Shown here one piece after another: positions 1 to 15,324 of a DNA stretch of 19,197 nucleotides. The notes beneath the pieces are model-generated. The model was not told the origin of the DNA and did not search any database. It saw only the letters and a program-made list of their open reading frames with translations. Source of the stretch: a virus (Duplodnaviria > Heunggongvirae > Uroviricota > Caudoviricetes); the IMG/VR virus record IMGVR_UViG_2667527789_000020, positions 1-19,197 of that record; one strand, given 5' to 3'. Both the position numbers and the translations under genes were made by a program. Each line of letters starts with the position of its first letter. Within the stretch, counting starts at the first letter, position 1.

Positions 1-1020
1 CTACTTGCTGACCACAAGTGGCAAATCCAGTGTCGGCGTGATTTTTGTTTTACGATCATAAATCAACACCTGATTTTCTGTTTTATGTCCACTGAAAATC
101 TGTTTGTCGCGACTGCTTCCTTCGTAATCTGATATTCCTTTGGCTTTTATGTCATGGAAATTGCACCCAAACGGGACGCCGGATTTTTTCTCGGCTGCGT
201 GTTTAGCCTGGTTCCACCAGTTGTTTAGCGTTTTAGCTATGACCTTCCCGCCCTTGGTTGTGTTGATCACATATTCACATGTGCCTGAAGATACATTTCT
301 GGCTAACTGGATCGCGGTTCGTAATCGTGGAGACCATTCCTTGATTTGTTTGGTGCCGGTCTTGTTTTGCTCAATGTAGATTCCTTTATCCATAATATCC
401 TGCCATTTCAGCTCGAGCACATCACCGAGTCTTGCCGCACAAAGATAGGATATCTCCATTGCAATGCGTAACTGTGGTATTGCTTCCGCATATATCGCCG
501 CATACTGTTCATCTGTGATGTAAACAGTGCGGGCTTTAAGCGTAAATTTCCTGACTCCTTTGCATGGGTTATTCTTCACATATCCACGCTCATATCCCCA
601 CCCGTATACACGACTGAGACTTGCCAGTTCATGGTTTGCCTGGGTCTTGCTCTCAATCCCCCGTTTATCCATGAAAATTCTTACCTGCTCAATTTTTACA
701 TTATCAGCCAGTACTTTTCCGAAGACTGCCAGTAACGCCCTCTGATGTTGCCGATAATCTTTTTGGGTTCTGGGGGCCAGTTCTGTAAATGCGGGGGAAT
801 CCATAAACATGTGCCATAATTTAGCGACGGTCATTATGTTGTGGCGTTTTGCTTTTTCCAGTTCATAATTCTGCCAGACTTTAGCTATGCTGGTTTCCCG
901 CACTCTTCCTAGCCCTATAGTTTTTGTGCTTCCTTCGGGTTTCCATACGTAACTGTAACCATTCGATCTAACACGTGGCGGTAGTGCATTATCTTTTTTG
1001 TTTTTTCTTGGTCTTCCCAT
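1..1020 (-). CDS. int: Tyrosine recombinase, lambda-Int family phage integrase (339 aa)
   Basis: Complete ORF. N-terminus MGRPRKNKKD...PPRVRSNGYSY...GLGRVRE parallels the lambda Int arm-binding domain. C-terminal half carries the catalytic Arg (AARLGD), an HDIK box and GHKTE...VLIYDR containing the nucleophilic Tyr. Sits at the prophage end followed by an overlapping xis-like gene. Confidence 0.93.
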   Translation of the reverse strand: MGRPRKNKKDNALPPRVRSNGYSYVWKPEGSTKTIGLGRVRETSIAKVWQNYELEKAKRHNIMTVAKLWHMFMDSPAFTELAPRTQKDYRQHQRALLAVFGKVLADNVKIEQVRIFMDKRGIESKTQANHELASLSRVYGWGYERGYVKNNPCKGVRKFTLKARTVYITDEQYAAIYAEAIPQLRIAMEISYLCAARLGDVLELKWQDIMDKGIYIEQNKTGTKQIKEWSPRLRTAIQLARNVSSGTCEYVINTTKGGKVIAKTLNNWWNQAKHAAEKKSGVPFGCNFHDIKAKGISDYEGSSRDKQIFSGHKTENQVLIYDRKTKITPTLDLPLVVSK

Positions 1021-1240
1021 TGTTCAGCGCCTCAAAATCGGGGTCAGCAGAAACCAGTTCAGATACTTTCGGTATCGCAGTCAGTCCGCGCGGGACATCA
1101 CTGCGAAGAACTATTGGTTCGTTTTTAGGACCGGGTACAAATGGGATACCGTGCAACCTTAACTGTTGTTGCTGTTTTGTATACCGTTCGTATCTCGTGA
1201 TCTCTTGAATTTCTGCTGGCGATAGAGTTAATTCGTACAT
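989..1240 (-). CDS. Putative excisionase / recombination directionality factor (83 aa)
   Basis: ATG at 1240; small basic protein with a K/R-rich C-terminus whose 3' end overlaps the int start by 32 bp, the classic xis-int arrangement. No recognisable similarity to lambda Xis, so the call rests on position only. Confidence 0.45.
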   Translation of the reverse strand: MYELTLSPAEIQEITRYERYTKQQQQLRLHGIPFVPGPKNEPIVLRSDVPRGLTAIPKVSELVSADPDFEALNNGKTKKKQKR

Positions 1241-1306
1241 GTGGTCACGTGCCTTACAGCATGACCGCCGCCACTATAGCTTGTGGGCGGCGATATGGGT
1301 TGAACA

Positions 1307-3745
1307 TTAAAAATCAGCCTGATTCGGGAACAGTTTTTGCCAGATAGCTGAAACGTATTTTGCCTGGTAACGCGCATCGTGCAGGGCATTATGGCGTTCA
1401 CCCTCAAATGTGATGACACTTCGAGCATCGAAATCCATCACCAGCCCCAGGGCAACAATCGTTCTTACATCACGATCATTGGTGTAACGCCACGGGCAGG
1501 GGATCTCCTGCCGTTCATATGAACGGCGTAAAATCACGTTGTCGAAGTTGGCTCCATTTCCCCAGACCTGAACAAAAAACTCACCGGAGTTTTCGTCTAT
1601 AAATTCCCGTAATTGTAAAAGCGCATCATCAAGCGGTATTCGATCAGCTAAAATGGCGGCACGGGCTTCGCCAGAGCGTTGAAGCCACCATTCGATGGTG
1701 CTTATGTCTACAGTGCCGCCACATGTACCCATATCAATTATTTTGCTGAATTCAGGCCCCTGCTCTCCGGTTTGTGGATCGAAAAATACAGCGCCTATTG
1801 AGGCTATTGGTGCGTCAGGATTTTTGCCCATTGTTTCAAGGTCAATCATCAGATGGTGCCACAACCTGCTGGTGGATGTGATTTCACGATGACCGTTCAC
1901 CTTAATTAAGGGATTTGCTGTCTCGCCTGTTTCATTATTGCCATTGGCATGTTGATCGCCTTCGGTGCACTCCTTGTTCGGGAGTCCGGCACTTTCCATT
2001 TCCTCCGGATCTTTTTCCCGGGCTTCATCCTGGCTTTCTTCGTTGAATGTCTCCTGGTAGGTTGCGTCCCCCATCACTGCGCCACAATCAGGGCAGTTAC
2101 CACCACCAGTCTGATTGCATGCGGTACAAACTTTTTCCTCTTCCTGTTGCACTACTGGTTCAGGTTGTTTCGTTTCTGGCTCGTTTTGTAACGCATTTGG
2201 GCTGTTTTGTTCCGCTTTCTGACCGTTCTGTTCCGTTTCTTGCTGGTTCTGGTTCACAGAATCGCAGGTTTCAATCCCCTTAACCCATTTCGAATCATTC
2301 GGGTCGCTAATCCCTTCAACAAACTCACCACGAGAAGCGGCAAGCAATTTGTCGGCATCTGGTCGACTGATGTCTGCTGCCTCCATAATTTTATTTACTT
2401 CTTCAGCAGTAACTTTTACCTGTGACTTGTCATCCAGCGGCTGCGGGTCCTGATGATGTTCAACTGTATCCGCTGCCATTGTTTCAGCCGTTGCCTGTTC
2501 ATCTGCCATTGCGCCAGATGGTTGCGGGTTTTCTTCATCATTTTTTTCTTCTTCTGTTTTGCACTCAGCAGCCAGTCCGCCGTTAATTTCTTCCAGGATA
2601 TCTTTTTCCGGTGTATGCCGGGCAGCCATGAGCGTTTCAGCTGTGGGATTCTCGTGATCAGTTTCTGTCAGGTTGGCATTGATATACCCCTGAAGGCGTC
2701 CCGGGTAGTGATAAAACTCAGGGTGGGCGCTCCGGATAAGTGCAAAAATAGCTGCGCGGGAATAGTCCAGGATACCAGGGGTTGCGCGAAGTGCTGCGGA
2801 CCATTCCCTGAACGGACTTTCTTTTTTCAGGACGATTTCTTTTGCGCGACGATAAACGCTCACGGGTATTTCATAAATATTAAAATCCATCGGAAGTGTG
2901 GCTGCTGCAGCCTCCACATCCAGAGTATCGAGGGTGTGTACTAAGTCAGGATTACGATCGGTTTTATTTCCGCCACCGGCATTTGCACCGGAAGCCGTGC
3001 GGGTGATGCGAGAAACACGATTTCCTTTCATCCACTCTTTTGTCAGCAGACCTCGATCGGTATAGTCAGCGTCCAGGTATGCTTCGAAAAAAGCAGTCAT
3101 TAACCCCAGACTGGAATTAACGGGATTAGGGAAAACTTTGTCTGTGTCGCGTACCAGTTTGTGAAGGTCGCGAATCTCCAGCGGGTCGAGCAGCTTTGTG
3201 TTGTGGGAAATAGCCAGGGTAGTAACAGCCGGCAGTTCTTCAGCTCGTGCGATATGTAATGCCTGAAGTTCTTCCCGTGAAACGTGCGTTACCGGTTTTT
3301 CGCTGCCATGTTGCGCAAGCCAGCGAATGGGCAGTTCCTGACCGGAAATCGGCAGGAGCATATTATCCTCAATCTCAGCCATGTCTTCGCCATTGACGTT
3401 GGTATTGTCAGTGCTGGCTGGTTTGTCCTGAACTGAGGGGGAAGGCGCTATAAATATCATTGTGATGCCATCTTCCCCGCCTTTTTCATAGCGGTTGCAG
3501 AATTCGGTATCAAACACGCCTTCCGGTGGAAGGTCATTCACAACGGGGAAATGGACGCGGACAGGTTTTTTGAAATCATCAGCGTCGTAGCCTGCCTCGT
3601 CCATTGCAACAACGCACCGTGAGATGGCAACAGATAATTTTTTTGCTGTAGTCCAGTAAAAACCCCCTTTAATCCCAAGGCGTTTTCTGACCTTGTCATT
3701 TTTTGCTTCGCAATATAGCGAAAATTCTTCTTTATCAGTGCTCAT
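1307..3745 (-). CDS. Large prophage exonuclease (812 aa): RecE-N-terminal-like region, CxxC-x8-CxxC zinc ribbon, C-terminal DEDDh (DnaQ-like) 3'-5' exonuclease domain
   Basis: ATG at 3745 preceded by GAGG with 7-nt spacer. C-terminal domain shows Exo I (MIDLETMG), Exo II (VWGNGANFDNVIL) and Exo III (HNALHDARYQAKY) motifs. Central Cys cluster CTACNQTGGGNCPDCG. N-terminal part (NTNVNGEDM.EIE.NMLLPISGQELPIRWLAQHGSEKPVTHVSR) resembles, from memory, the dispensable N-terminal region of Rac RecE. Confidence 0.8.
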   Translation of the reverse strand: MSTDKEEFSLYCEAKNDKVRKRLGIKGGFYWTTAKKLSVAISRCVVAMDEAGYDADDFKKPVRVHFPVVNDLPPEGVFDTEFCNRYEKGGEDGITMIFIAPSPSVQDKPASTDNTNVNGEDMAEIEDNMLLPISGQELPIRWLAQHGSEKPVTHVSREELQALHIARAEELPAVTTLAISHNTKLLDPLEIRDLHKLVRDTDKVFPNPVNSSLGLMTAFFEAYLDADYTDRGLLTKEWMKGNRVSRITRTASGANAGGGNKTDRNPDLVHTLDTLDVEAAAATLPMDFNIYEIPVSVYRRAKEIVLKKESPFREWSAALRATPGILDYSRAAIFALIRSAHPEFYHYPGRLQGYINANLTETDHENPTAETLMAARHTPEKDILEEINGGLAAECKTEEEKNDEENPQPSGAMADEQATAETMAADTVEHHQDPQPLDDKSQVKVTAEEVNKIMEAADISRPDADKLLAASRGEFVEGISDPNDSKWVKGIETCDSVNQNQQETEQNGQKAEQNSPNALQNEPETKQPEPVVQQEEEKVCTACNQTGGGNCPDCGAVMGDATYQETFNEESQDEAREKDPEEMESAGLPNKECTEGDQHANGNNETGETANPLIKVNGHREITSTSRLWHHLMIDLETMGKNPDAPIASIGAVFFDPQTGEQGPEFSKIIDMGTCGGTVDISTIEWWLQRSGEARAAILADRIPLDDALLQLREFIDENSGEFFVQVWGNGANFDNVILRRSYERQEIPCPWRYTNDRDVRTIVALGLVMDFDARSVITFEGERHNALHDARYQAKYVSAIWQKLFPNQADF

Positions 3746-3837
3746 GGATAAACCTCATAACTATTTTAAGGTTGTACGAACCCCTGCCATTGCTGGCATG
3801 CTTAATCAACGGGTATGGCGTTAATATGGCTGGTGGA

Positions 3838-4026
3838 TTATCCAGCCGGTATTTCGTTATTCAGGTACAGCGATACTTTTTTTAACGGGAGGCATTCGCC
3901 AGAAATTTTTTGCTCGTCTCTTGCACGGAGGCATGATTCTTTACTGGCATAAATTCCGGTAATCACATTCTGTGGCTCACCCGTTATAAGAAAAACAGTC
4001 ATTACCAGTGCAAATGCAGAAGTCAC
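3838..4026 (-). CDS. Small hypothetical protein with a hydrophobic N-terminal segment (YdfD-like position after dicB)
   Basis: GTG at 4026 overlaps the dicB-like stop (GTGA); alternative in-frame ATG at 4002. Hydrophobic stretch FALVMTVFLITG. Same strand and tightly coupled within the leftward operon. Identity unknown. Confidence 0.35.
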   Translation of the reverse strand: MTSAFALVMTVFLITGEPQNVITGIYASKESCLRARDEQKISGECLPLKKVSLYLNNEIPAG

Positions 4027-4211
4027 TGCTGCCCCCCGAAAATACCAAGTTTAAGAAGGGCAATTCTGGAGAGTATGGAATTATCATTGAGAAGATAAGG
4101 CTCATATTTTCTCATCTTAATGGCATCTTCAGTAAACTCCCGGTTACTGAGCAGAATACCAATATCAAAACACCCTTCAGACGTATTAACGTTTGGTAAT
4201 AACGTTTCCAT
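4023..4211 (-). CDS. dicB: Cell-division inhibitor DicB homolog (62 aa)
   Basis: METLLPNVNTSEGCFDIGILLSNREFTEDAI... closely matches the N-terminal half of E. coli Qin DicB as I recall it (MKTLLPNVNTSEGCFEIG...FTEDAI), and the length is identical. ATG at 4211 preceded by GAGGA with a 7-nt spacer. Confidence 0.75.
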   Translation of the reverse strand: METLLPNVNTSEGCFDIGILLSNREFTEDAIKMRKYEPYLLNDNSILSRIALLKLGIFGGQQ

Positions 4212-4221
4212 TATCGCGTCC

Positions 4222-4806
4222 TCAACAATGAATTTTTAGTAATTGCTCCACAGTCATATTTTTAATTGCGCTCCGGTTTACAAGAGTCCAGCCTTGTTTC
4301 TCCAGATAAAACTGGAAGGTATCCAGGGTGCAGACCATTGCACCATCAGGAACGGTTTCAGTGAATTTGATATTGCCGTGTTCGTCGAGACGGATAACCA
4401 GGGTACGTCCGTCCCCGTGAATCATTTTGTCGGGAGACGGGGCGTTATTCTGGCGCAGTTCTTTCTCCATGCGATCGAACTCAGCGATGTAGGCTTCTTT
4501 AAATGCAGCGGCTTTTTTGCCGGTGAAGCCCATCACCAGGAAAACGAAGCCGTTTTTGGTGATTTGGTACATAGGGAGTTTGCGCCCGGTTGAGTCGGTA
4601 TATTCACTGGGCGAAAAATTTCGCTCAGTGAATTCTGCTGAACAGTCTAGACGTGAAATTTTTGCCAGTACATCTTTGTGTGGTTTCCGGAAATACTCGG
4701 CAACAGCTAAAGAGGATGTAACAGCACGCCCATTGGCGATAGTAATTTCAGGGTGAGAAAGGGCAGGGATAGTAGCCATGATGGCAGCCTCCATGATGAA
4801 TTTCAT
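4222..4806 (-). CDS. Rha-family phage regulatory protein (antirepressor-like)
   Basis: Core ITIANGRAVTSSLAVAEYFRKPHKDVLAKISRL...MYQITKNGFVFLVMGFTGKKAAAFKEAYIAEF is typical of the Phage_pRha domain. The six-frame ORF extends to 5073 but the first ~90 codons are compositionally non-protein-like and contain a terminator-like hairpin. Likely start is ATG at 4806 (SD-like GGTGGTGAG upstream) or ATG at 4779 (GGAGG, 8-nt spacer). Confidence 0.7.
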   Translation of the reverse strand: MKFIMEAAIMATIPALSHPEITIANGRAVTSSLAVAEYFRKPHKDVLAKISRLDCSAEFTERNFSPSEYTDSTGRKLPMYQITKNGFVFLVMGFTGKKAAAFKEAYIAEFDRMEKELRQNNAPSPDKMIHGDGRTLVIRLDEHGNIKFTETVPDGAMVCTLDTFQFYLEKQGWTLVNRSAIKNMTVEQLLKIHC

Positions 4807-4943
4807 TAACTCACCACCGGAGGTAGCAATCTCATGGGTGGTGAGACGCACAGGGTTGCTACAACCGGTCATCATGGAACCCGGCCAGCCTTGCGGCTGC
4901 CCTGCACGCCCCACCATAATCTGAATGTGGCTGTGCATTACGC

Positions 4944-4968
4944 ATAAAAAAACCGCCTGAGCGCGGTT
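4944..4968 (-). terminator. Candidate Rho-independent terminator on the minus strand
   Basis: Minus-strand RNA would form AACCGC / GCGGTT stem (6 bp, 6-nt loop) followed by a 7-U run (plus-strand A7 at 4946-4952). Lies between the DicF-like element and the Rha start. Confidence 0.4.
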
Positions 4969-5264
4969 ATGCGCCATGATGAACATCGGGGTAGCAATCC
5001 CGGCACCCGCTTTATGAGGTGCAGGTGCACTATAATTCCACCCGTTCTGGTTTTCAATAGCTACATTCAACATTTTCTCTTACCTTTCATCACCGAAGTG
5101 AACTTTGTCGATGCAGTGCCTGGTGCCTCCAGGTGACGTTAACCAGTTAACAATTAACGCCGGAATACAGAAGTATGCCCGTTACGCCCCGTAAAAGACC
5201 ACTTTACGGTTTTAACTGTTCCGCGTGCGCTTAGCCGCATTCACCGCATCACAAAATTCACTTT

Positions 5265-5322
5265 AAAAAGGGCGGACATCAGAAAGCTAATAAACTGATG
5301 CCGCCAAAGGTACCACTGCCAT
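5265..5322 (-). ncRNA. dicF: DicF-like small RNA candidate with intrinsic terminator
   Basis: Minus-strand transcript ...ACCUUUGGCGGCAUCAG-UUUAUUAGCUUU-CUGAUGUCCGCC-CUUUUU: an 11-bp GC-rich stem (one bulge), 12-nt loop and U5 tail. The UUUGGCGG.AUCAGUUU and CCGCCCUUUUU segments resemble E. coli DicF as I recall it. Lies in the same operon and upstream of the dicB homolog, as in Qin. The 5' end is not defined. Confidence 0.45.
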
Positions 5323-5590
5323 TGAAACATGGAGATGTTGTGGCGGGGTTGTCACTCAGGCATATGGTCAACCTGACAACCCGGTGTCCTCAATGAGGGG
5401 AAAAGAAATAAAAACCCCCAGCCATATTTACCGCCGCGCCATTTCGCGGATTGCCACAACCGGAAGCACACGGTCGAAGAAATCTAACGACAAGCCTTCT
5501 AAGGGAAAGAGCTTCGCCGTGCGCTTTCGTGTTATACCCTGACTTTTCAGGGTAAATTAACCAGTGGCAACCTGTTTTTACTGGTGCTAA

Positions 5591-5743
5591 TCAGTTAGTG
5601 TTTCTGGCTAACCAGCGACGCGCGCCAGCTTCGGTTTTAAACTTTTTACTTTTGGTATACGTCATCGCGGTAAACGTGCCGTCCTGGTTAGGGAACACAC
5701 CACATACCAGAGATTCGTTGTTGCCAAGATTGAGCGTATCCAT
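5591..5743 (-). CDS. Small protein (50 aa), YdfA/YdaF-like (DUF1391-like) first gene of the leftward operon
   Basis: ATG at 5743 preceded by GAGG with a 5-nt spacer (TGAGGTCAACATG). The six-frame ORF extends to 5797, but that upstream start has no RBS. Product MDTLNLGNNESLVCGVFPNQDGTFTAMTYTKSKKFKTEAGARRWLARNTN. Family assignment is from position and vague recall only. Confidence 0.5.
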   Translation of the reverse strand: MDTLNLGNNESLVCGVFPNQDGTFTAMTYTKSKKFKTEAGARRWLARNTN

Positions 5744-5923
5744 GTTGACCTCATTTCCCCTTAACGCCGGGGTAGCGGAACAAAAAACCTGCTGCATAGT
5801 TAAACGTAATCCCCGCCGTCATGTTCATACGCCTCAGGCTGGCTACTTAACCCCTGACCACTGCCGGGTAACTCGAAGTATTGCCCTGCGTTCTGTGGGG
5901 CGGGGTGGGTTTATGGATACAAT

Positions 5924-6006
5924 TTACAAATTAAAATTTAACTGGTCAACATGTTTATTATTAAATTTGTAATTGCGAGCTGTTGCATTAGTCCCAAAAT
6001 GGGACT
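5924..6006. promoter_or_regulatory. Candidate operator/promoter region (OL-like, divergent leftward promoter and higBA promoter)
   Basis: AT-rich. Inverted repeat TTACAAATT (5924-5932) / AATTTGTAA (5964-5972), and a second perfect palindrome AGTCCCA-aaa-TGGGACT (5990-6006) immediately upstream of higB. The TTACAAAT half-site recurs in the repressor/cro intergenic region. Confidence 0.4.
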
Positions 6007-6017
6007 ACTATACAGTT

Positions 6018-6320
6018 ATGAAGATTATCTCAGTTAAAACACTCAGGGATTTTTGGGCGGAGAATCCTGATGCAGAACAACCGCTAAGGGCATGGGTGGA
6101 TGAGGCGGCAAAAGCTGACTGGAAAAGCCCAGCAGACATTAAGGCACAATACCGAACGGCCAGTATATTGAAAAACCGGCGCGTGGTATTCAACATAAAA
6201 GGTAATCATTACCGTTTAATTGTTGCAATTGCGTATCAGCGAGGATGGGTATTTGTTAAATTCATCGGAAACCACAAGGAATACGATGCTATTGATGCTG
6301 ATACCATCGAACTGGAGTAA
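6018..6320 (+). CDS. higB: Type II toxin HigB (RelE/ParE superfamily mRNA interferase), 100 aa
   Basis: ...VVFNIKGNHYRLIVAIAYQRGWVFVKFIGNHKEYD parallels E. coli HigB (VFNVGGNELRVVAMV...HKEYD). Directly followed by an HTH antitoxin gene 2 bp downstream. The six-frame ORF starts at a TTG at 5973; ATG 6018 is preferred. Confidence 0.85.
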   Translation: MKIISVKTLRDFWAENPDAEQPLRAWVDEAAKADWKSPADIKAQYRTASILKNRRVVFNIKGNHYRLIVAIAYQRGWVFVKFIGNHKEYDAIDADTIELE

Positions 6321-6322
6321 GC

Positions 6323-6682
6323 ATGAACATCAAACCTATTCGTACAGAGCAAGATTATGAAGCCGCGTTGCGTGCTGTTGAACCCATGTTCGACAATGAG
6401 CCCGAAATTGACACGCCTGAGGGGGATTTTTTTGAGGTGATGTGTTTGCTAATAGAGGAATATGAAAAAAAACATTATCCCATTGAGCCACCATCCCCAA
6501 TTGAAGCTATAAGATTTCGCATGGAACAGCAGGGGCTGACTGTGAAAGATTTGGAACCCGCAATTGGGAAAAAAAATCGGGTTTATGAGGTGTTGAATGG
6601 TACCAGAAGCCTTACGTTACCAATGATTCGCCGTCTTCATAATCAATTTGGTATCCCCCTGGAAAGCCTGGTTGGATTATAA
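6323..6682 (+). CDS. higA: Antitoxin HigA (XRE-family HTH), 119 aa
   Basis: Acidic N-terminal part and C-terminal HTH (LTVKDLEPAIGKKNRVYEVLNGTRSLTLPMIRRLHNQFGIPLESLV). Toxin-first gene order with a 2-bp spacing is typical of higBA. Confidence 0.85.
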   Translation: MNIKPIRTEQDYEAALRAVEPMFDNEPEIDTPEGDFFEVMCLLIEEYEKKHYPIEPPSPIEAIRFRMEQQGLTVKDLEPAIGKKNRVYEVLNGTRSLTLPMIRRLHNQFGIPLESLVGL

Positions 6683-6697
6683 AATCTGCTAGTCATT

Positions 6698-6746
6698 TGC
6701 CTGATGCTCGTTCCAGAAAAGGAATGCATCAGGCAGTTTTGTTTTT
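6698..6746 (+). terminator. Rho-independent terminator after higA (convergent with the repressor 3' end)
   Basis: TGCCTGATGC (6698-6707) pairs with GCATCAGGCA (6726-6735), with an inner TTCC/GGAA stem, followed by GTTTTGTTTTT. Overlaps the stop codon of the minus-strand repressor gene. Confidence 0.6.
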
Positions 6747-7121
6747 CTGCCGCAGTAACTCTTCAAGTTTCCGTTTATAGAAATCGCGTTTTTGCTCCAT
6801 ATCACGAATGATCTGCTCTGCGTCGCTTTGAGGTAACTCATCTAAAAGCGATATGATTTTTCGTTGTTGTTCTGTAAGTTGCGGTTGGTTGTCATTACTG
6901 GATACAGCCATTTTATCGCCGAGAGTTTCTTCTTCCATAAAGAACCAATGGACGGGATGTTGTGAGAGCTCTGCTAATTTTTCCAGTTTATCCATTCTTG
7001 GCATCACGCCTTTCAACCAACCTTGCACGGATTGGGGTTTTACACCAAGACGTCTTCCCAGCTCTGACTGGTTTATATTCAATTCCTGCAACACCTGCTG
7101 AAGGCGTTTTACAAAGATCAT
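6729..7121 (-). CDS. DicA-like prophage repressor (N-terminal XRE HTH, C-terminal coiled-coil), 130 aa
   Basis: HTH LQQVLQELNINQSELGRRLGVKPQSVQGWLKG, then a charged helical tail (EQQRKIISLLDELPQSDAEQIIRDMEQKRDFYKRKLEELLRQ) with the same architecture as DicA. No S24 peptidase domain. ATG at 7121 preferred (GAGGGG, 5-nt spacer) over the in-frame GTG at 7127. Divergent from the cro-like gene. Confidence 0.8.
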   Translation of the reverse strand: MIFVKRLQQVLQELNINQSELGRRLGVKPQSVQGWLKGVMPRMDKLEKLAELSQHPVHWFFMEEETLGDKMAVSSNDNQPQLTEQQRKIISLLDELPQSDAEQIIRDMEQKRDFYKRKLEELLRQKNKTA

Positions 7122-7176
7122 CACCACCCCTCGTAAACTAGTTCCGCGATCCTACAGAAAAAATTGATAAGTGGCA

Positions 7177-7214
7177 TTACAAATAGAAGTTGAAATTTAA
7201 ATTTAAATTTGTAA
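7177..7214. promoter_or_regulatory. Candidate operator (OR-like) in the repressor/cro divergent promoter region
   Basis: Inverted repeat TTACAAAT (7177-7184) / ATTTGTAA (7207-7214) flanking three tandem AAATTT units. Lies in the 126-bp intergenic space between the repressor start and the ydaS-like start. Confidence 0.4.
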
Positions 7215-7247
7215 TCATCGGTGTCATCGTAAAGTTCGGAGGGAAAC

Positions 7248-7508
7248 ATGCAAAAAAGTACTCAAGTGAAAATCCTGTCAATAATGAGCCAATCAGAATT
7301 AGGGCGTCGTCTTGGTAAAACACCGCAAACCATAAGTGGGTGGTTTAAAAAACGAGTGCCAGCGGAGGAGGTTATACCAGCATGTGAGGCGCTTGACTGG
7401 GGAGTAACTCCGCATGAATTGCGCCCTGATAAATACCCTAATCCAACCGATGGTTTACCTGTTGAGTATCAGGCTAACGCACAAGCAGCGGCGGGAGTTG
7501 ATTCATGA
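7248..7508 (+). CDS. ydaS: Cro-like HTH protein, YdaS family (86 aa)
   Basis: SQSELGRRLGKTPQTISGWFKKRVPAEEVIPACEALDWGVTPHELRPDKYP matches the YdaS/Cro-like pattern (LG.TPQ..S.W...VPAE.V...E......HELRPD.YP). ATG preceded by GGAGGG. Divergent from the repressor. Confidence 0.7.
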   Translation: MQKSTQVKILSIMSQSELGRRLGKTPQTISGWFKKRVPAEEVIPACEALDWGVTPHELRPDKYPNPTDGLPVEYQANAQAAAGVDS

Positions 7509-7942
7509 AAATCAAGCATGAGCACATCCGCATGGCGATGAATGCGTGGCTGCTTTATCCGAGGGTAGGGCGCAAAAAAATCGCTGATGATATAGCGACA
7601 GCATATTTTGAGCTTGAAATGACTTATCCACCAATGCATGACACCTCTACGACAGAGGGTATTGGATTGAATATACAAAATATTTTTCGCTGGCTTGAAA
7701 AGGATACGCCTGATGCTGTTGAAAAAATTCAGGCACTAATTCCGGCTATCCTGACTGTTCTTCCGCGTGAACTGCGTTATCACCTCAGTATTTTTGACAC
7801 TGTTGAGCGCCGTGCATTACTGGCGGCGCAGGAAGCGTTGAGCACGGCAATTGATGCACATGATGATGCTGTCCAGGCCGTTTACCGGAAAGCGTATTTC
7901 AGCGACGGCGGGTCATCCGGCGAGTCTGTTGTGGTGCATTGA
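7505..7942 (+). CDS. ydaT: YdaT-family protein (CII-like regulator / putative toxin YdaT), 145 aa
   Basis: Begins MKIKHEHI; C-terminal LIPAILTVLPRELRYHLSIFDTVERRALLAAQEALSTAIDAHDDAVQAVYRKAYFSDGGSSGESVVVH matches Rac YdaT as I recall it. ATGA overlap with the ydaS-like stop. Confidence 0.7.
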   Translation: MKIKHEHIRMAMNAWLLYPRVGRKKIADDIATAYFELEMTYPPMHDTSTTEGIGLNIQNIFRWLEKDTPDAVEKIQALIPAILTVLPRELRYHLSIFDTVERRALLAAQEALSTAIDAHDDAVQAVYRKAYFSDGGSSGESVVVH

Positions 7943-8028
7943 TATTTATGCCAGCCCCCTGCTGATTCTGTTGATTGGGGAATCACAGAATATCACCAGA
8001 GGATGGTTCGTCACAAGATGAGGCAATT

Positions 8029-9039
8029 ATGGCCGCATTACCATACATGCAACTGTACATAGCTGATTACCTAGCTGACACCATGCATTTGTCCGCAGAG
8101 GAGCACGGTGCGTATTTGTTGCTGATGTTCAATTACTGGCAAACAGGGAAACCAATACCTAAAAACAGGCTGGCAAAAATTTCCCGTCTGACTAACGAGC
8201 GATGGGCTGATGTGGAACCATCCTTGCGGGAGTTTTTTTGCGATAACGGCGATGAATGGGTGCATCTTCGGATTGAGGAAGATCTGGCATCAGTCAGGGA
8301 AAAATTAACCAAAAAATCAGCCGCCGGAAAAGCATCTGTTCAGGCCAGAAGAAGCAGAAAGGAAGCATATGTTCAAACAAAACAAGAGAGAGATTTAACA
8401 GGCGTTCAAACAAATGTTGGTGTTGTGTTTGAACATGACGCAAACACAAAAGCAACTAATAAAGATACAGATCTAAAAGAATTAAACCCCACACATAACG
8501 TGCGTGAACGCGAGAGTATTCCGACCAGTGAGTCGCATGGTGCGCCGTTGCAGACAGCCGAACCTGAATACCTGGACGGCCTGAGCGAACCGATCGGGAA
8601 ATTTTCGATGACCACTGTCTGGCAGCCGTCGCCGGATTTTCGACAACGGGCAGCAGTGTGGGGTATGGCTCTGCCTGAGCCGGAATTTACACCTGCTGAG
8701 CTTGCCGCATTCCGGGATTACTGGATGGCGGAGGGGAAGGTTTTCACACAGGTTCAGTGGGAGCAGAAATTTGCCCGCCACGTGCAGCACGTCAGGGCAC
8801 AGGTAAAACCAGTCAGCAAGGGGGGAAGCCATGCAGCATCAGGTGGCACGGCATCACGGGCAATTCAGGAAATCCGGGCAGCACGCGAACAGTGGGAACG
8901 AGACAACGGATTTATCAGCAACGGAAACGGCCTGGAAGCTGTGGGAGCTTATGGGGGAGGTGTATTCGAACCGCTGGACTCAGAAGAACGGGGCCGCACC
9001 TTCGAAGCTCTGGATTGCCCAGATTGGTGCGATGACTGA
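8029..9039 (+). CDS. Replication initiation protein, YdaU-like (DUF1376 N-terminal domain, DnaT-like C-terminal region)
   Basis: ATG at 8029 preceded by GAGG with a 5-nt spacer; the six-frame ORF starts at a TTG at 7975. N-terminus YMQLYIADYLADTMHLSAEEHGAYLLLMFNYWQTG is the DUF1376 signature. C-terminal half (SMTTVWQPSPDFRQRAAVWG...FTPAELAAFRDYW) resembles DnaT-like domains. Confidence 0.7.
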   Translation: MAALPYMQLYIADYLADTMHLSAEEHGAYLLLMFNYWQTGKPIPKNRLAKISRLTNERWADVEPSLREFFCDNGDEWVHLRIEEDLASVREKLTKKSAAGKASVQARRSRKEAYVQTKQERDLTGVQTNVGVVFEHDANTKATNKDTDLKELNPTHNVRERESIPTSESHGAPLQTAEPEYLDGLSEPIGKFSMTTVWQPSPDFRQRAAVWGMALPEPEFTPAELAAFRDYWMAEGKVFTQVQWEQKFARHVQHVRAQVKPVSKGGSHAASGGTASRAIQEIRAAREQWERDNGFISNGNGLEAVGAYGGGVFEPLDSEERGRTFEALDCPDWCDD

Positions 9040-9493
9040 ACAGCAAATCCGGCAGGTCTGTCGTCAGTGCATGGACCGCTGCCGGGCGGGTGAAACGTGG
9101 CCCCCGGACCTGGCTGAGTTTGTTGCGCTGATTTCGGAGAGTGGGGCAAATCCATTTGGTCTTACGGTGGATGCCGTGATGGAAGAGTACCGGCGCTGGC
9201 GCAATGAATCCTGGCGATACGACGGGAGTGATAAATACCCGTGGCCACAGCCTGTGCTGTACCACATCTGCCTCGAAATGCGTACCAGAGGGATTGAGCG
9301 CCAGATGACGCAGGGTGAGTTAAAACGACTTGCGGAACGGCAACTGACGAAATGGGCAAAGCATGTTGGTAACGGGATGAGTGTTCCGCCAGTGCGACGA
9401 CAACTGGAAGGGGCGAAACACCCGAAAGGGCCAACGCCAATTGAATGGCTGAAACAGGAATACGAACGCCGGAAGGCAGCTGGTTTTATTTGA
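8831..9493 (+). CDS. Lambda P-like replication protein (helicase loader family)
   Basis: PPDLAEFVALISESGANPFGLTVDAVMEEYRRWRNE...DKYPWPQPVLYHICLEMRTRG...QGELKRLAERQL parallels lambda P (PSPGQFVAWCREE...GLPNVSELVDMVYEYCRKRG...ESYPWKSNAHYWL...TDAELRRKAADEL). ATG at 8831 has a strong SD (AAGGGGGGAAG) but overlaps the upstream gene by 209 bp in another frame. Alternative starts are 8951 and 9032. Confidence 0.6.
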   Translation: MQHQVARHHGQFRKSGQHANSGNETTDLSATETAWKLWELMGEVYSNRWTQKNGAAPSKLWIAQIGAMTEQQIRQVCRQCMDRCRAGETWPPDLAEFVALISESGANPFGLTVDAVMEEYRRWRNESWRYDGSDKYPWPQPVLYHICLEMRTRGIERQMTQGELKRLAERQLTKWAKHVGNGMSVPPVRRQLEGAKHPKGPTPIEWLKQEYERRKAAGFI

Positions 9494-9526
9494 ATCTGAG
9501 AAGCGATTTTGTAGGAGGAAATTTTA

Positions 9527-10288
9527 ATGGAAACCGTTTTTGACGCACTGAAAGCAATGGGAAAAGCCAGCTCTGTTGGACTGGCTGAGCGGCTTGATAT
9601 CAGTCGTGAAGAGGTTCTCAACGAACTGTGGGAACTCAAAAGAAATGGCGTTGTTGATAAAGCGGGTCACATCTGGTTTCTGGCTGGCGAAGGTGAATCC
9701 GGGGTAACCGAAGAGCAGCCAGAACAGTCTGAAGTACCGGATGTGCTGACCGGGGAGGTCGAACAAAAAGTTACCGCAGACATGATGATTGAGTTTATCG
9801 GTCAGGAGGGGGCTAAAACGTGTGAGGAACTGGCGGATAAGTTCGGTGTTAGCATTCGCAAGGTTGCTTCCACGTTGGCGGTGGTAACCGCAACGGGACG
9901 CCTGGCACGCGTAAATCAGAACGGTAAATTTCGTTACTGCATGCCGGGCGATAATTTACCAGCAGAGCCGAAAGCCGTGCCGGTAACGGAAAATGATGGT
10001 AAGGCCTTTCCTCAGCCAGCAGGTGTTGCGTTACCAGTACAGGAATCTGCAACACAGGAAGATATTAAAACAGAAACAGTGGCGGACATTGTGCAGTCGT
10101 TGCCATCGTTTACCGAAACGCAAGCAGATGAGCTGATTTTTCTGTCCCTGTGCAGGGCAAACCTGGCGCTGCGCAGGGCGAAAAGTGATGTTCAGAAGTG
10201 GGAGCGAGTCTGTGCCGCGCTGCGGGAACTGAACAAACACAGGGATATTCTCCGGGATATTACCGCCACCAGAGAGCTGCTGCGGTGA
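9527..10288 (+). CDS. Hypothetical protein with two tandem winged-helix-like modules (253 aa)
   Basis: ATG preceded by AGGAGG. Two internally similar segments ([30 protein letters not shown] and [32 protein letters not shown]) look like wHTH units. Function unknown. Confidence 0.65.
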
Positions 10289-10320
10289 GTGGCTGGAAGA
10301 AGTGGCGCTGGGCGGAAATT

Positions 10321-10602
10321 ATGATACTCCGGCAGTGTGCGGGAACGATGACAGTCGAAAGCATCGGCAGTCTGATTGGCCGTAGTGGGGCTGCCGTCAG
10401 GACGAAAGCGCGGGAACTGGGTATCTGCATGATGTTACGGGGTGATTATCACCAGTCAGCCAAATGTTCACAGCGTGATATTGAGCTGGCGCGGCAACTG
10501 CATCAGCGTGGCGTACCCCGACGGGAAATTGCCGAAAAGTTTGGGATGAAGTTGGGCGCAGTGAATAACTACGTTTATTTCGACAGGAGGGTTCAGGCGT
10601 GA
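10321..10602 (+). CDS. Small HTH-domain protein
   Basis: Two HTH-like segments (TVESIGSLIGRSGAAVRTKARELGI and VPRREIAEKFGMKLGAVNNYV). Start is uncertain: GTG 10285 overlapping the upstream stop, ATG 10321 or ATG 10342, all with weak RBS. Confidence 0.5.
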   Translation: MILRQCAGTMTVESIGSLIGRSGAAVRTKARELGICMMLRGDYHQSAKCSQRDIELARQLHQRGVPRREIAEKFGMKLGAVNNYVYFDRRVQA

Positions 10603-10904
10603 GGGTGAGAATTTATATCGCCGGTCCGATGACGGGATATGAAAATTTCAACCGTGAGGCGTTTCACAGGGCGGAAGAAGCACTGAAACGGGAAGGGCAT
10701 ACCGTTTTAAACCCGGCAGTACTTCCGGACGGACTGACACAGCCACACTACATGGATATTTGCATGGCGATGATACGCTGCGTGGATGCGATTTACATGC
10801 TGAAAGGCTGGCAGCGGTCGGCAGGCGCTAAGGCAGAACTGGCACTGGCGGAGAAACTGGGACATGCGGTTATTTTCCAGGAGGCAACCAGTGAGAAAAA
10901 TTAA
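10599..10904 (+). CDS. DUF4406-family protein (nucleoside 2-deoxyribosyltransferase-like fold), 101 aa
   Basis: GTG start overlapping the upstream stop (GTGA), preceded by AGGAGG. N-terminal MRVRIYIAGPMTGYENFNREAF is the characteristic DUF4406 signature. Confidence 0.7.
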   Translation: MRVRIYIAGPMTGYENFNREAFHRAEEALKREGHTVLNPAVLPDGLTQPHYMDICMAMIRCVDAIYMLKGWQRSAGAKAELALAEKLGHAVIFQEATSEKN

Positions 10905-11541
10905 TTATCAGACGCTACGTGAGATAGCAAAACTGGCAACCCAGGGCGAATGGGTCGCATTCATTTCGCCGGGCACTGATACATATGCGGTGCATACGCC
11001 GGGGGATGAACGTTGCGGAGACATTATCAAATGGCCTGGCTTTGATGACCAGAAAAATGCAGAGAACAACGCAGAATTTATTGCAGCTTTCAACCCTGAA
11101 GTAGTACAGGCACTGCTGGATGAACGGGAAGCCCAAAGCAAACGTATTGCAGAGCTGGAAGCTAATCTTGTGGCGCTGGCGGCGGAGAATGCACTTGCTC
11201 GTAAAGCAGTTCAGGCATTCTGCGATGTTGTTGGCGACAACACCGAGGTTATCTGCGAGGAGGTTGGGAGAGATGGCGTTCTGGTTATTTTGGAGGCCAT
11301 GAAGGCAACAGGAAATATGCCAGCCACCGATGCTTTCCTGTCTGAAGTGCGGGCGCTGGGGGTGGATGCTGCTATAGAAGCTGCAAAAAATCTGGTGGCC
11401 CAAGAATATGAGTATAAGGATTTCAAAGCGGCGCAGAGTGATTGCTGTATGCACCCTGGTTCAGACCTGATAGGGAAGGTTGAAATGACTGAGTGGTTAG
11501 TTGACTTTGCTGCCCAGCTTCGCAAAGGAGTTCAGTCATGA
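10891..11541 (+). CDS. ead/Ea22-like family protein
   Basis: GTG start (AGGAGG, 6-nt spacer) giving VRKINYQTLREIAKLATQGEW..., the Ea22-like N-terminal motif, followed by a coiled-coil segment (AQSKRIAELEANLVALAAENALARKAV). The six-frame ORF begins upstream at 10864 inside the DUF4406 gene. Confidence 0.6.
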   Translation: MRKINYQTLREIAKLATQGEWVAFISPGTDTYAVHTPGDERCGDIIKWPGFDDQKNAENNAEFIAAFNPEVVQALLDEREAQSKRIAELEANLVALAAENALARKAVQAFCDVVGDNTEVICEEVGRDGVLVILEAMKATGNMPATDAFLSEVRALGVDAAIEAAKNLVAQEYEYKDFKAAQSDCCMHPGSDLIGKVEMTEWLVDFAAQLRKGVQS

Positions 11542-11867
11542 GAGCTTCAATTAGTTATGTCGACGATTGCCACCTAAGCGTGCGTGTTGATGAAATTGTG
11601 TCATCCGTGCCAACTTTTCCGACAAAAAATGCAGCCGTTAATGCAGGCGCGCCATTCGGATGGAGGACGGCAGTTCGTATTGAGCGTCGATTCGAAAACG
11701 TTTGGGTGGTAGGTAAGAAATGCTTCCAAAGCGATCGCTCTGCGGGGCTTAATTTTGAAGCATATCGATTCCCGTTCCTCCGATGGGAGAAAGAGGGCGG
11801 GATTACAAAATGCCCGATTCTTTCCGTGCGCAGATTCAAGCAGGAGGCAACCAGTGAGCAAGATTGA
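11538..11867 (+). CDS. Hypothetical protein (109 aa)
   Basis: ATGA overlap with the upstream stop. Its C-terminus (...KQEATSEQD) is encoded by the same 18-bp junction sequence that forms the C-terminus of the DUF4406 gene (...FQEATSEKN), which suggests a genuine gene at a module joint. Confidence 0.4.
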   Translation: MRASISYVDDCHLSVRVDEIVSSVPTFPTKNAAVNAGAPFGWRTAVRIERRFENVWVVGKKCFQSDRSAGLNFEAYRFPFLRWEKEGGITKCPILSVRRFKQEATSEQD

Positions 11868-12198
11868 CTATCAGGTATTGCGTGAGGCAGCACAAAACTA
11901 TCGGTCGATGCTGGCGTGGTATCAGGAGAAACCAGACAGTCCAAACGCTGAGCAGGATTGTGATGCAGCTTTGGCTGCGTTTAAGCGTGAAATCCGTCAT
12001 CGTGAAGTGGGTATTATCGCTGATTTGCTGGATGAACTGGAGGAAGCAAAACAGCGTATCGACGAGCAGGAGTCCCGCATAGTGAAGTTACCAGAACCAT
12101 TCAAGCTGGCTAAATCATCAAGTGGATTAACGTACTACTACGCTGATGAGGTCAATGCCGCACTGACTGCTGCTGGTATTCGCATAGAAGGAGAGTGA
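11854..12198 (+). CDS. Ea22-like N-terminal-motif protein (114 aa)
   Basis: GTG start within the repeated junction. VSKIDYQVLREAAQNY parallels VRKINYQTLREIAKLA of the upstream Ea22-like gene, followed by a coiled-coil segment (LDELEEAKQRIDEQESRIVKL). Confidence 0.5.
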   Translation: MSKIDYQVLREAAQNYRSMLAWYQEKPDSPNAEQDCDAALAAFKREIRHREVGIIADLLDELEEAKQRIDEQESRIVKLPEPFKLAKSSSGLTYYYADEVNAALTAAGIRIEGE

Positions 12199-12199
12199 G

Positions 12200-12553
12200 A
12201 TGACCACTATTACCAAAGAGCGACTGCAATGGCTGGCTAACATTTCTGGCCGCGATGACATTGACGATATAGACGGCGGTGAAATTCGTGAGCTGGCGCT
12301 TATCGCGCTGGCATCGCTGGAAGCGAAGCCTGTAGCTTCATGTATTATTGAAGATGGGGGCATGTGTGTTGACGGGTTCGGTGAGTATGTTGGTCACTCG
12401 CTGCCTGATGGAACGCACCAGCTTTACGCCGCCCCGCCAGTGCCTAGTAAGTTGCCGCGTGAATACAGAAACGGTTGGCCTCTTGCATATAGTGATTATG
12501 CTGAAGGCTGGAACGACTGCCGCGAAGCCATGCTTCAGGGAGATAAATCATGA
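12200..12553 (+). CDS. Hypothetical protein (117 aa)
   Basis: ATG preceded by GGAGAG, 1 bp after the upstream stop; the downstream gene starts with an ATGA overlap. No recognisable domain. Confidence 0.55.
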   Translation: MTTITKERLQWLANISGRDDIDDIDGGEIRELALIALASLEAKPVASCIIEDGGMCVDGFGEYVGHSLPDGTHQLYAAPPVPSKLPREYRNGWPLAYSDYAEGWNDCREAMLQGDKS

Positions 12554-13138: not shown

Positions 13139-14263
13139 ATGCGGATGAAAGAATTAAATAAATTCAGAGTGATAGACCTCTTTTGTGGGGCAGGTGGATT
13201 ATCTTATGGTTTTCTTCATGGAGAGATGTCTGACTACTTTGAAAGTATCCTTGCTATTGATAATAATGCTGCAGCTATAAATACCTACAATGCCAATTTT
13301 GGTTTGCATGGAGTTCAGGCAAATATTGAGGAGTGGGCATCCAGCAATACTGTTCCTGAGGCTGATGTGGTCATAGGTGGCCCCCCGTGTCAGGGATTCA
13401 GTTTATTGAATAAGAATCGTTATGGTGATCACCGAAGAGCATTGTGGGAGCCTTATATGGATGTCATTGAGCGTTCAAGGGCTTGCATGTTCGTCATGGA
13501 AAATGTCCCCGGATTGCTGATAAGCGATGAGTTTGCGGACATTACGTTTAGAGCGAAATCCATGGGCTTTATTCTGCTTAATCCAATGGTGTTGAATACT
13601 GCTGACTATGGAGTACCTCAGACAAGAAAACGAACGATAGCAATCGGTATCAAACGAGAACTCTTCGATGAGCATAGTATTCCGGCGTTCCCGCCAGCAC
13701 CAACGCATCGTTCCCCTGATAAGGATGTCGCTTTGCCTGAATGGGTCTGTACGCGTGATGCAATTGGTGACTTACCTGCTCCTGTTGGAACTGATATTCG
13801 TAATGAACTTCCTCCGCTGAACTTACATTTTGGGCGTAATCCCACACCTGTTTCTCTGGAGCGATATAAAGCGGTTCCACCAGGAGGTAACCGTTTCGAT
13901 TTACAGAAAAAAAGACCTGATATAACCCCGGCGTGCTGGCTAAAAAAGAAATCTGGAGGGACCGATTTGTTTGGACGTCTGTGGTGGGACAGACCTTCAG
14001 TAACGATTCGTACTGAGTTTTTCAAACCGGAGAAAGGGCGATATTTACATCCGGAAGAGGATCGGCCAATAACTCATCGTGAGGCAGCGAGATTAATGTC
14101 TTTTCCTGATAATTTCATTTTTACCGGTTCAAAAACTGAGATTGCAAAGCAGATCGGGAATGCTGTTCCACCGCTATTTGCGGCAAAAATCGCACAATAT
14201 GTGTATGGAGTTTTGCAGGGACGGTATAAGAATAACATCAGTAAGAATAGTCAAGCAGCCTGA
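13139..14263 (+). CDS. DNA (cytosine-5)-methyltransferase, modification subunit of a Type II R-M system (374 aa)
   Basis: Motif I DLFCGAGG (FxGxGG), motif IV GGPPCQGFS (catalytic PC), motif VI ENV, motif X-like QIGNAVPPLFAAKIA. ATG preceded by GAGG with a 7-nt spacer. Visibly more AT-rich than the flanking phage genes. Confidence 0.9.
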   Translation: MRMKELNKFRVIDLFCGAGGLSYGFLHGEMSDYFESILAIDNNAAAINTYNANFGLHGVQANIEEWASSNTVPEADVVIGGPPCQGFSLLNKNRYGDHRRALWEPYMDVIERSRACMFVMENVPGLLISDEFADITFRAKSMGFILLNPMVLNTADYGVPQTRKRTIAIGIKRELFDEHSIPAFPPAPTHRSPDKDVALPEWVCTRDAIGDLPAPVGTDIRNELPPLNLHFGRNPTPVSLERYKAVPPGGNRFDLQKKRPDITPACWLKKKSGGTDLFGRLWWDRPSVTIRTEFFKPEKGRYLHPEEDRPITHREAARLMSFPDNFIFTGSKTEIAKQIGNAVPPLFAAKIAQYVYGVLQGRYKNNISKNSQAA

Positions 14264-14276
14264 AGGAAATCCAGAA

Positions 14277-15154
14277 ATGAATGGAGATTTGGTTGACAGC
14301 ATAGTTGGTTTTGCTGAAGCCAGAAAGGAGTTTCATGCCCAATTGTTACTGAATACGCTCACAATTAATACTGCCGGAGTTGTTAGTAACGCAGATAGCA
14401 GTAACAAAAACAGTAAAGCTATAGCAAGAGAAATTGCTCGCTTCTTGCAGGCTGAAACGATTGGTGAACGTGTTGCAGGGCAAACATCTGGTAATCAGTT
14501 TGAGAGTATCTGCGCAGAGTTTATAAAAAAACCTTTTTTAAACTCAGCCACTTACGCCCTGGGAAATGGAATGTATATCAGGTTTCTGGTAGAAACAGAT
14601 TAGAGATAGCTAAATATGAACAATATGCCCATCTTATAGCATTGGATAGTGCTGCAAAAAGTAATCCTCAGCTAGCTGCTGCACTGGGGAGTGATTATAC
14701 GATTTCACCAGATATTATTGTTGAAAGAGAACCTGAATGCGATCAAGTTATCAACAGTCCTGAATTACTGGTGGATGATTCTGTTACCCGCATGTCAGCT
14801 CTCAGGAGTTCGAATGGTGGGAAACCAATATTACACGCAAGTATTTCCTGCAAATGGACAATAAGAAGCGACCGGGCCCAGAATGCTCGTTCTGAGGCAT
14901 TAAATCTTATTCGCAACCGTAAGGGAAATCTCCCTCATGTAATGGTTGTTACTGCTGAGCCTACTCCAAGTCGTCTGGCGTCTATTGCTCTTGGTACTGG
15001 TGATATAGATTGCGTGTACCATTTTGCGCTTTATGAACTTATATCAGCAGTTGAAATACTGGGGCTCAGCGATGCAGCTGACATGCTTTCCGTGATGGTT
15101 AATGGTAAAAGATTAAAGGATATTTCTGATCTTCCCTTGGATCTTGCAGTCTGA
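14277..15154 (+). pseudogene. Type II restriction endonuclease, Cfr10I/NgoMIV-like, reading frame split by a 1-nt shift in a homopolymer region
   Basis: N-terminal piece 14277-14603 (frame 3) and C-terminal piece open from 14504 to 15154 (frame 2) overlap around an A7 tract (14525-14531) and a T6 tract (14534-14539). The C-terminal piece carries SPD-X46-SCK-X13-E (SPDIIVERE...HASISCKWTIRSDRAQNARSE), matching the PD-X46-55-K-X13-E active-site arrangement of the Cfr10I/NgoMIV family. Starts 14 bp after the C5-methyltransferase stop. Joined length is about 290 aa, typical for this family. Confidence 0.6.
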
Positions 15155-15226
15155 CATCTCTATGTAAATAGAGTCTGTCATATTTTAACTGTGATGGCAC
15201 GTCATTGACTTCAGTACATTTTTACT

Positions 15227-15252: not shown

Positions 15253-15324
15253 CCTGGCATTCTGGTTTACAATCCACACGCCAGCCTGAACAACTGGCAC
15301 CTGCTGCGCCAGCAGAGACAACCG

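Follow-up and report, generated by a model that had tools for sequence, protein, structure and literature searches.

What enzyme results when the N-terminal part of the RecE exonuclease is joined to a nuclease domain of another fold, and what might it do for the prophage that encodes it? The question is raised by a gene at positions 1307–3745 (minus strand) of a 19,197-nucleotide stretch of viral DNA (IMG/VR record IMGVR_UViG_2667527789_000020, positions 1 to 19,197), referred to here as the window, which comprises the early region of a lambdoid prophage from the integrase through the Q antiterminator and further. The gene encodes a protein of 812 amino acids (aa), which an earlier note, made from the sequence, had read as a RecE-like region fused to a zinc ribbon and a DEDDh 3'-5' exonuclease. 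Taken as a whole, the locus is on balance best explained as coding for a chimeric 3'-end exonuclease of the prophage's early operon, in which a RecE-type N-terminal region is combined with a C-terminal domain of the DEDDh type. The parts of the gene are as follows.

1307..3745, minus strand: chimeric exonuclease gene, 812 aa, intact open reading frame (ORF) including the stop codon; start codon ATG at 3745
3753..3756, minus strand: Shine-Dalgarno sequence GAGG, 7 nt 5' of the ATG at 3745, read directly from the sequence
2576..3745, minus strand: folded RecE-type N-terminal region, aa 1–390, containing the PF06630 match
1859..2575, minus strand: acidic Q/N-rich linker, aa 391–629, predicted to be mostly disordered (predicted local distance difference test score, pLDDT, mostly <50)
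2084..2128, minus strand: four-cysteine motif CTACNQTGGGNCPDC (C540, C543, C551, C554), of the form CxxC-x7-CxxC
1340..1858, minus strand: predicted DEDDh (DnaQ-fold) 3'-5' exonuclease domain, aa 630–802, assigned from PF16473, Foldseek and the catalytic residues

A DEDDh-type domain in the place of the RecE nuclease

Membership of the C-terminal domain in the PF16473 family is clear from its sequence. The Pfam model PF16473 (Rv2179c-like 3'-5' exoribonuclease) matches aa 630–802 at 9.6e-63 with a score of 211.5 bits against a cut-off of 27, and is covered in full (positions 1–177 of 177). The putative catalytic residues D635, E637, D735, H785 and D790 align to D7, E9, D119, H186 and D191 of T4 DexA, and this DEDDh pentad is invariant in an alignment with 11 stand-alone homologues. 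When the sequence was searched against the PDB, the T4 DexA structures 8KEL and 8KEN were the sole matches (8KEL at 2e-5).

The predicted structure points the same way. AlphaFold2 modeling of the full-length protein gives a confident region at aa 1–390, a low-confidence linker at 390–625 and a confident alpha/beta domain at 630–805, the last with block-mean pLDDT values mostly about 90 (64–96). Comparison of the DEDDh domain with the PDB using Foldseek places DexA first (8KEL/8KEN, 3e-8), followed by RNase T, the oligoribonuclease Orn, REXO2 and ERI, with a probability of 1.00 for the DexA, RNase T and Orn matches; all the matches are of the DEDDh type, with no PD-(D/E)XK structure among them. 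The profile match, the full pentad and the likeness to DexA all bear out the view that the C-terminus is DnaQ-like and not of the PD-(D/E)XK type. A DEDDh domain of the DexA/Rv2179c type occupies the position where the RecE of the Rac prophage begins its PD-(D/E)XK 5'-3' nuclease, and the point at which the two have been swapped is a natural domain boundary.

The RecE-type N-terminal region and the linker

The N-terminal part of the protein is RecE-like, as the earlier note had proposed. Pfam PF06630 (Exonuc_VIII) matches aa 51–189 at 3.5e-34, and BLASTP comparison with the RecE protein of K-12 (from MG1655) shows 56% identity between aa 50–614 and RecE residues 42–591, with no similarity to K-12 RecE past residue 591. 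The NCBIfam RecE equivalog model NF007259 aligns aa 1–614 with model positions 1–602 of 877, albeit with a score of 877 bits against a cut-off of 1269, since no part of the protein matches the final third of the model.

The linker is rich in acidic residues (D+E, 24–25%) and in glutamine and asparagine (Q+N, 14–16%), and it too aligns with K-12 RecE as far as RecE residue 591. The four-cysteine motif lies within it, in a part of the AlphaFold2 model with a pLDDT of about 40–50. The counterpart of the motif in K-12 RecE reads CNACGQTGGDNCPDC, and the motif is 90–100% identical in five orthologues. Because it is conserved in K-12 RecE and lies within the linker, the motif belongs to RecE's own N-terminal region; the zinc ribbon of the earlier note is therefore present as four cysteines, but not as a module added to the RecE-like part. 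From the spacing of the cysteines the motif may bind a metal.

The linker also contains two predicted helices (aa 447–456 and 464–471, pLDDT 69–80) within aa 443–476 (2318–2419, minus strand), a segment that gives a weak Pfam match to the UBA-like family UBA_HYPK (E 0.014, under the cut-off). To judge from the model, this helical element could be a small protein-binding module.

No annealase accompanies the gene

The earlier note reported no RecT-, Bet- or Erf-like gene between the exonuclease and xis, and both profile and phmmer scans agree with it: the xis-like DUF4224 gene follows 66 bp past the exonuclease stop codon, with no intervening gene. Pfam and PHROGs scans of about 30 plausible genes in the window gave no match of the RecT/Bet, Erf or Rad52 type, and phmmer searches with K-12 RecT, lambda Bet, Exo and Gam, and P22 Erf, covering every ORF of at least 60 aa in the window and in six related loci, gave no match even at E<=5. 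Recombination-related genes elsewhere in the window are limited to RusA and a DUF968/HNH-like gene, both in the nin region.

The six related loci were taken from E. coli strain 48, EDL933, the ST131 strain EC958, a chicken isolate, and phages mEp460 and vB_EcoS-640R1. All six have the order dicB-DUF1482-exonuclease (812–823 aa)-xis-int with no annealase, and none was found in the 13 fused loci from other species described below, so that the related prophages give the same answer as the window itself. Two-component recombinases of the Red, RecET or Erf type have an exonuclease and an annealase in the same operon, and there is no annealase in the operon of the chimera.

Comparison with Rac RecE is instructive in both directions. 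Over the N-terminal ~600 residues, acidic linker and four-cysteine motif included, the two proteins are homologous (56% identity), and each is encoded by a large gene that sits shortly upstream of xis-int in a lambdoid prophage's leftward early operon. However, the PD-(D/E)XK 5'-3' domain of Rac RecE (K-12 residues ~564/588–866) is replaced by the DEDDh 3'-5' domain, and whereas the Rac order is recE-recT-ralR-rcbA-xis-int, there is no recT, ralR or rcbA downstream of the chimera. Since it has neither the nuclease domain nor the partner of RecE, the chimera is not a functional member of the RecE family.

Setting in the prophage

The first 11.5 kb of the window share 99.3% identity with a prophage of E. 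coli strain 48 that adjoins yccA. From the prophage end, the genes around the exonuclease are the following.

1..1020, minus strand: tyrosine integrase, at the prophage end; adjoins yccA in the nearest genome
989..1240, minus strand: xis-like gene (DUF4224; Pfam PF13986, 2e-10); same annotation in the 99%-identical locus of strain 48 (L001)
3838..4026, minus strand: DUF1482/ydfD-like gene (Pfam PF07358, 6.6e-16), directly upstream of the exonuclease in the same leftward operon
4023..4211, minus strand: dicB (Pfam PF05358, 5.6e-36), upstream of the exonuclease in the same leftward operon
4222..5073, minus strand: Rha/Ash-type gene, upstream of dicB in the gene order
5591..5797, minus strand: DUF1391 gene, in the leftward gene order
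6729..7127, minus strand: cI-like repressor gene, in the leftward gene order

A scan for promoters and terminators around the exonuclease gene found sites no more numerous than in shuffled sequence.

Several other elements were noted in the window. Two RNAs are recognized by Rfam on the minus strand, a C4 antisense RNA at 4834–4921 (77.9 bits) and isrK at 4946–5022 (64.7 bits), and both fall within the 5' part of the long 'Ash + Rha' ORF (4222..5073); the true start of the Rha/antirepressor gene would accordingly lie downstream of both RNAs. Together they suggest an immunity element of the P1/P7 type, with c4 and an antirepressor. On the strand opposite to the leftward early genes, a HigB/HigA toxin-antitoxin pair (5973–6682, plus strand) separates these genes from that of the repressor.

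In the nin region, a sok antitoxin RNA (13028–13208, plus strand; Rfam RF01794, 61 bits, barely over the gathering score) marks a locus of the hok/sok type, and L001 has a Hok/Gef gene at the corresponding place. The same region carries a type II restriction-modification cassette (13139–15154, plus strand), headed by a C5 cytosine DNA methylase (13139..14263, plus strand; PF00145 at 3e-54) and followed by a restriction enzyme of the NgoMIV family that is represented by two ORFs (14142..14603 and 14642..15154, matching model positions 1–72 and 108–275) and is probably disrupted. The restriction-modification stretch is missing from the otherwise 99%-identical strain 48 prophage.

Abundance in E. 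coli and annotation

Genes of this type are common. Among 5426 complete E. coli genomes the whole gene is present at >=80% coverage in 1221, and DNA of the DEDDh domain in 3229, at 6692 places and up to seven per genome. The nuclease domain of K-12-type recE was found in 1730 of these genomes (1827 places) and recT in 1749 (1842 places). The recE nuclease and recT travel together, and the DEDDh form is the commoner of the two. Records in phage collections that contain the gene include mEp460, Tritos and HannyBb. Many database proteins are already listed with the combination of PF06630 and PF16473, the PGAP name for the gene is 'exonuclease' or '3'-5' exonuclease', and PHROGs families 607, 2082 and 20376 correspond to it. 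The architecture is thus already catalogued and very widespread, hence already known as an observation, and as such would not surprise a phage genomicist; with the DEDDh domain in 3229 genomes against 1730 for the recE nuclease domain, it does not deserve the word 'unusual' that the earlier note gave it.

The usual E. coli form of the protein has 823 aa and shares about 80% identity with the chimera in the DEDDh domain, but only 15–32% in the first 390 aa, indicating that the gene is itself a mosaic. The reading frame is intact, with no internal stop codon, in all six related copies (strain 48 and five orthologues), the strain 48 orthologue being 99.8% identical with four substitutions and an uninterrupted frame.

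In the RefSeq/PGAP annotation of strain 48 (NZ_CP166879.1; L001, 17142–19439) the gene appears as a RecE 'pseudogene, missing C-terminus' together with a shorter 'exonuclease' coding sequence. We rejected the pseudogene reading, since direct comparison shows the four substitutions and a frame that is open throughout. It seems that proteins in which a RecE-type N-terminal region is joined to a DEDDh domain are systematically mis-annotated on account of the RecE model. We also considered whether the gene might be an intact form of ydfE of the K-12 Qin prophage, as the synteny dicB-ydfD-ydfE suggested, and rejected this when BLASTP showed no homology.

Fused and stand-alone relatives

An exhaustive, profile-free search of 1.84 billion cluster representatives for the RecE-type N-terminal region recovered 213 clusters at E<=0.001, a narrow family. 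Of the representatives with this region, 83 have at least 450 aa: 23 of these carry a PD-(D/E)XK domain, 14 carry PF16473 and two are fused to RecT; the remainder have no recognizable C-terminal domain, many of them probably being truncated. At least 14 clusters at 50% identity have the architecture of the chimera. In the two RecT fusions, one of which is P0243 (703 aa), the RecE-type region runs straight onto RecT with no nuclease between them (PF03837 at 1.2e-42, aa 528–678), and these could be either the product of a deletion that fused recE to recT or a third natural architecture.

A scan for the DEDDh domain in one genome per bacterial species yielded 80 loci. Fused forms account for 13, in Escherichia, Dryocola, Pluralibacter, Enterobacter, Buttiauxella, Atlantibacter, Phytobacter and Kosakonia; these have a repressor about 1.5 kb upstream and xis-int directly downstream. 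The other loci (about 67) are stand-alone genes of 180–240 aa in Enterobacterales, Vibrio, Aeromonas and a few others. At three places the prophage DNA is of enterobacterial type and the record is labeled otherwise (L010, L034 and L053/L066, in a Veillonella parvula metagenome-assembled genome, an Actinomycetes metagenome-assembled genome and Chryseobacterium sp. records); most likely these labels reflect contamination in binning or assembly and not the true hosts.

The neighbors of the stand-alone genes place this domain family among the accessory genes of phage DNA recombination and replication. At five stand-alone loci (L031, L034, L053, L055 and L056) an Erf gene lies shortly upstream (about 1.5 kb) on the same strand, and a cluster of genes for single-stranded DNA-binding protein (SSB) spans seven stand-alone loci, typically 4 bp from the exonuclease; at L055 (9444–9983) and L056 (2389–2880) SSB is called directly after Erf and before the exonuclease. 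The recurrence of Erf upstream suggests that the annealase is paired with a 3'-5' instead of a 5'-3' exonuclease. Other stand-alone loci have a DUF2303, HD-like, ParB-like or RdgC-like protein upstream. As the fused copies have no annealase nearby, the association with erf and ssb holds only for the stand-alone relatives. The latter (~180–240 aa) share 55–76% identity with the domain of the chimera, the same invariant motifs and a location in prophage early regions, but they lack the RecE-type N-terminus, and their erf, SSB, DUF2303, HD and RdgC neighbors are absent from the fused form. Rv2179c of Mycobacterium tuberculosis, the founder of PF16473, belongs to the same Pfam family as the domain, which matches the model over its full length, although Rv2179c is a chromosomal stand-alone enzyme described as an exoribonuclease.

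Comparison with T4 DexA and EcD

T4 DexA, the structure of which was solved by Kang et al. in 2025 (PMC12153337), is the closest solved relative of the domain by both sequence and fold (22–25% identity), with the same pentad and the same origin in a phage. It differs in being a stand-alone protein of 227 aa from a virulent phage, with extra loops, whereas the domain of the chimera is of the compact ~180-aa PF16473 type, sits behind 629 residues and lacks an equivalent of W152. The same study describes EcD, a stand-alone E. coli homologue of DexA that degrades the 5-hydroxymethylcytosine (5hmC) DNA of T4 and not unmodified DNA, and that was reported to protect cells from T4 when over-expressed from a plasmid (PMC12153337). 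Judging from the cloning primers, according to which EcD starts with MIDTET and ends with ...TIPETYD (PMC12153337), and from the description in that paper, EcD probably belongs to the same PF16473 family. Like the domain of the chimera it is a compact DexA-like DEDDh exonuclease in E. coli with the start motif MID.ET; it is, however, a stand-alone protein, and where it ends in ...TIPETYD the chimera ends in ...FPNQADF.

Three positions bear on specificity. DexA requires W152 for activity on T4 DNA, and absence of an equivalent of D90 has been linked to a dimer-only, host-sparing state (PMC12153337). EcD has Ala78 at the D90 position and keeps the tryptophan, whereas the chimera has Asp707 and Thr755. 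The equivalence of Thr755 with W152 comes from a HMMER alignment and may be off by a few residues, W752 being nearby; among close homologues this position is Y in 45, T in 17, C in 16 and W in 15, and across species W is the commonest. The equivalent of a further DexA residue, D169, is conserved as D771. Of the two residues to which recognition of 5hmC has been tied (PMC12153337), the chimera lacks one. Given Thr755 and D707, the chimera departs from what has been published for a 5hmC-specific enzyme, the uncertainty of the alignment notwithstanding, and from its sequence it is not demonstrably an enzyme of the HREX/EcD type.

Proposed role and alternatives

We are confident of the biochemical identity proposed for the chimera, and more guarded about its biology: that it processes 3' ends of DNA in phage replication or recombination without a dedicated annealase is a tentative proposal, with rather less than an even chance of being right. 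It is the role we favor because of the position of the gene, its RecE ancestry, the neighbors of its stand-alone relatives, and the role of DexA in double-strand-break processing. Its place in the prophage is the one that recombination genes have in lambdoid phages. It is an intact early gene of the leftward, pL-type operon in a lambdoid prophage integrated next to yccA, and would probably be expressed from that operon when the prophage is induced. By analogy with T4 DexA, the product would be a metal-dependent exonuclease that shortens nucleic acids, most probably DNA, from the 3' end. The RecE-type region, to which an acidic linker of roughly 240 residues tethers the DEDDh domain, would probably act as a carrier or a targeting module for nucleases of either type, and the most likely use of the enzyme would be to trim or degrade 3' ends of DNA during phage replication and recombination while leaning on host functions.

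Several points weigh against this proposal. A 3'-5' exonuclease removes the 3' tails that are needed for annealing or strand invasion, so that a pro-recombination role is not obvious, and a nearby annealase is present in none of the 13 fused loci across species and none of the seven E. coli and phage loci. The timing of expression is assumed from gene order. The substrate could also be RNA or short oligonucleotides, given that the Pfam family takes its name from the RNA exonuclease Rv2179c and that RNase T and Orn are among the fold matches. Literature searches on Rv2179c/PF16473 in prophages, on exodeoxyribonuclease VIII with a DEDDh domain, and on dicB/ydfD with an exonuclease turned up no paper on the fused form.

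The substrate issue leads to one alternative, that the chimera acts on RNA or nucleotide signals, trimming RNAs or destroying second messengers or retron-type nucleic acids as a counter-defense in lytic growth. This would fit the exoribonuclease family to which the domain is best matched, its structural neighbors after DexA (RNase T, oligoribonuclease, REXO2 and ERI), and the grouping of the gene with the early host-takeover genes dicB and DUF1482. Yet the solved structure closest to the domain in sequence and in fold belongs to a DNA exonuclease, the region fused to it is the N-terminal part of a nuclease for DNA recombination, erf and ssb are neighbors of its stand-alone relatives, and our literature searches found no paper tying the PF16473 family to degradation of signaling nucleotides; we regard this alternative as distinctly unlikely. 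The earlier note had suggested a different recombination role or one in anti-defense, which is reasonable, although the reported function of EcD, the closest described case in E. coli, is defense and not anti-defense.

A defensive function is itself an alternative: the chimera might be a prophage-borne nuclease of the HREX/EcD type that shields the lysogen from superinfecting T-even phages by selectively degrading their 5hmC DNA. DicB protects against some phages, and the family is very abundant in E. coli prophages, as defense genes often are. DexA is the best PDB match of the domain, its D169 is kept as D771, and EcD both degrades T4 DNA and protects against T4 (PMC12153337), albeit in a single study that relied on over-expression. 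On the other hand, the residue at the W152 position is a threonine and varies in close homologues, the D90 equivalent is present, and the protein has 600 extra residues that are not in EcD; the gene, moreover, is situated deep in a leftward operon under repressor control and shows no evident promoter of its own. We therefore consider this alternative unlikely. That the chimera is a functionless fusion, decaying or produced accidentally by illegitimate recombination in a defective prophage, we think very improbable indeed. The left arms of these prophages are highly mosaic, and the PGAP call of a RecE pseudogene and a shorter ORF in strain 48 would suit this idea, but that call is an artifact, all six related copies are intact, and the catalytic residues are invariant in the alignment with stand-alone homologues. 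The architecture, moreover, is shared by 14 or more clusters at 50% identity and recurs in phage-collection records and in 13 loci spread over several genera of enterobacteria. What probability remains beyond these alternatives and 3'-end processing of DNA falls to roles outside those considered.

Implications for RecE and for E. coli prophages

For decades no function has been assigned to the N-terminal two-thirds of RecE, even though linear-linear recombineering works better with it (PMC11611040). In E. coli the RecE-type region is more often found with a nuclease of opposite polarity, and without RecT, than with its K-12 partners, which argues that it is a functional module, and the natural swap of nucleases offers a comparison with which to probe it. 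A bolder and rather unlikely idea is that the region is an autonomous module indifferent to the nuclease it carries, for example one that targets DNA ends, the replisome or a host factor, and that it can bring either a PD-(D/E)XK 5'-3' nuclease together with RecT or a DEDDh 3'-5' nuclease and no annealase. If this were true, the DEDDh form would define a system of annealase-independent DNA-end processing, or of competition between phages, that is used by the largest class of E. coli lambdoid prophages. The gene is among the most abundant in E. coli prophages, with up to seven copies in enterohemorrhagic strains, and any role that it has in prophage recombination, in mosaicism or in phage-phage competition would matter widely.

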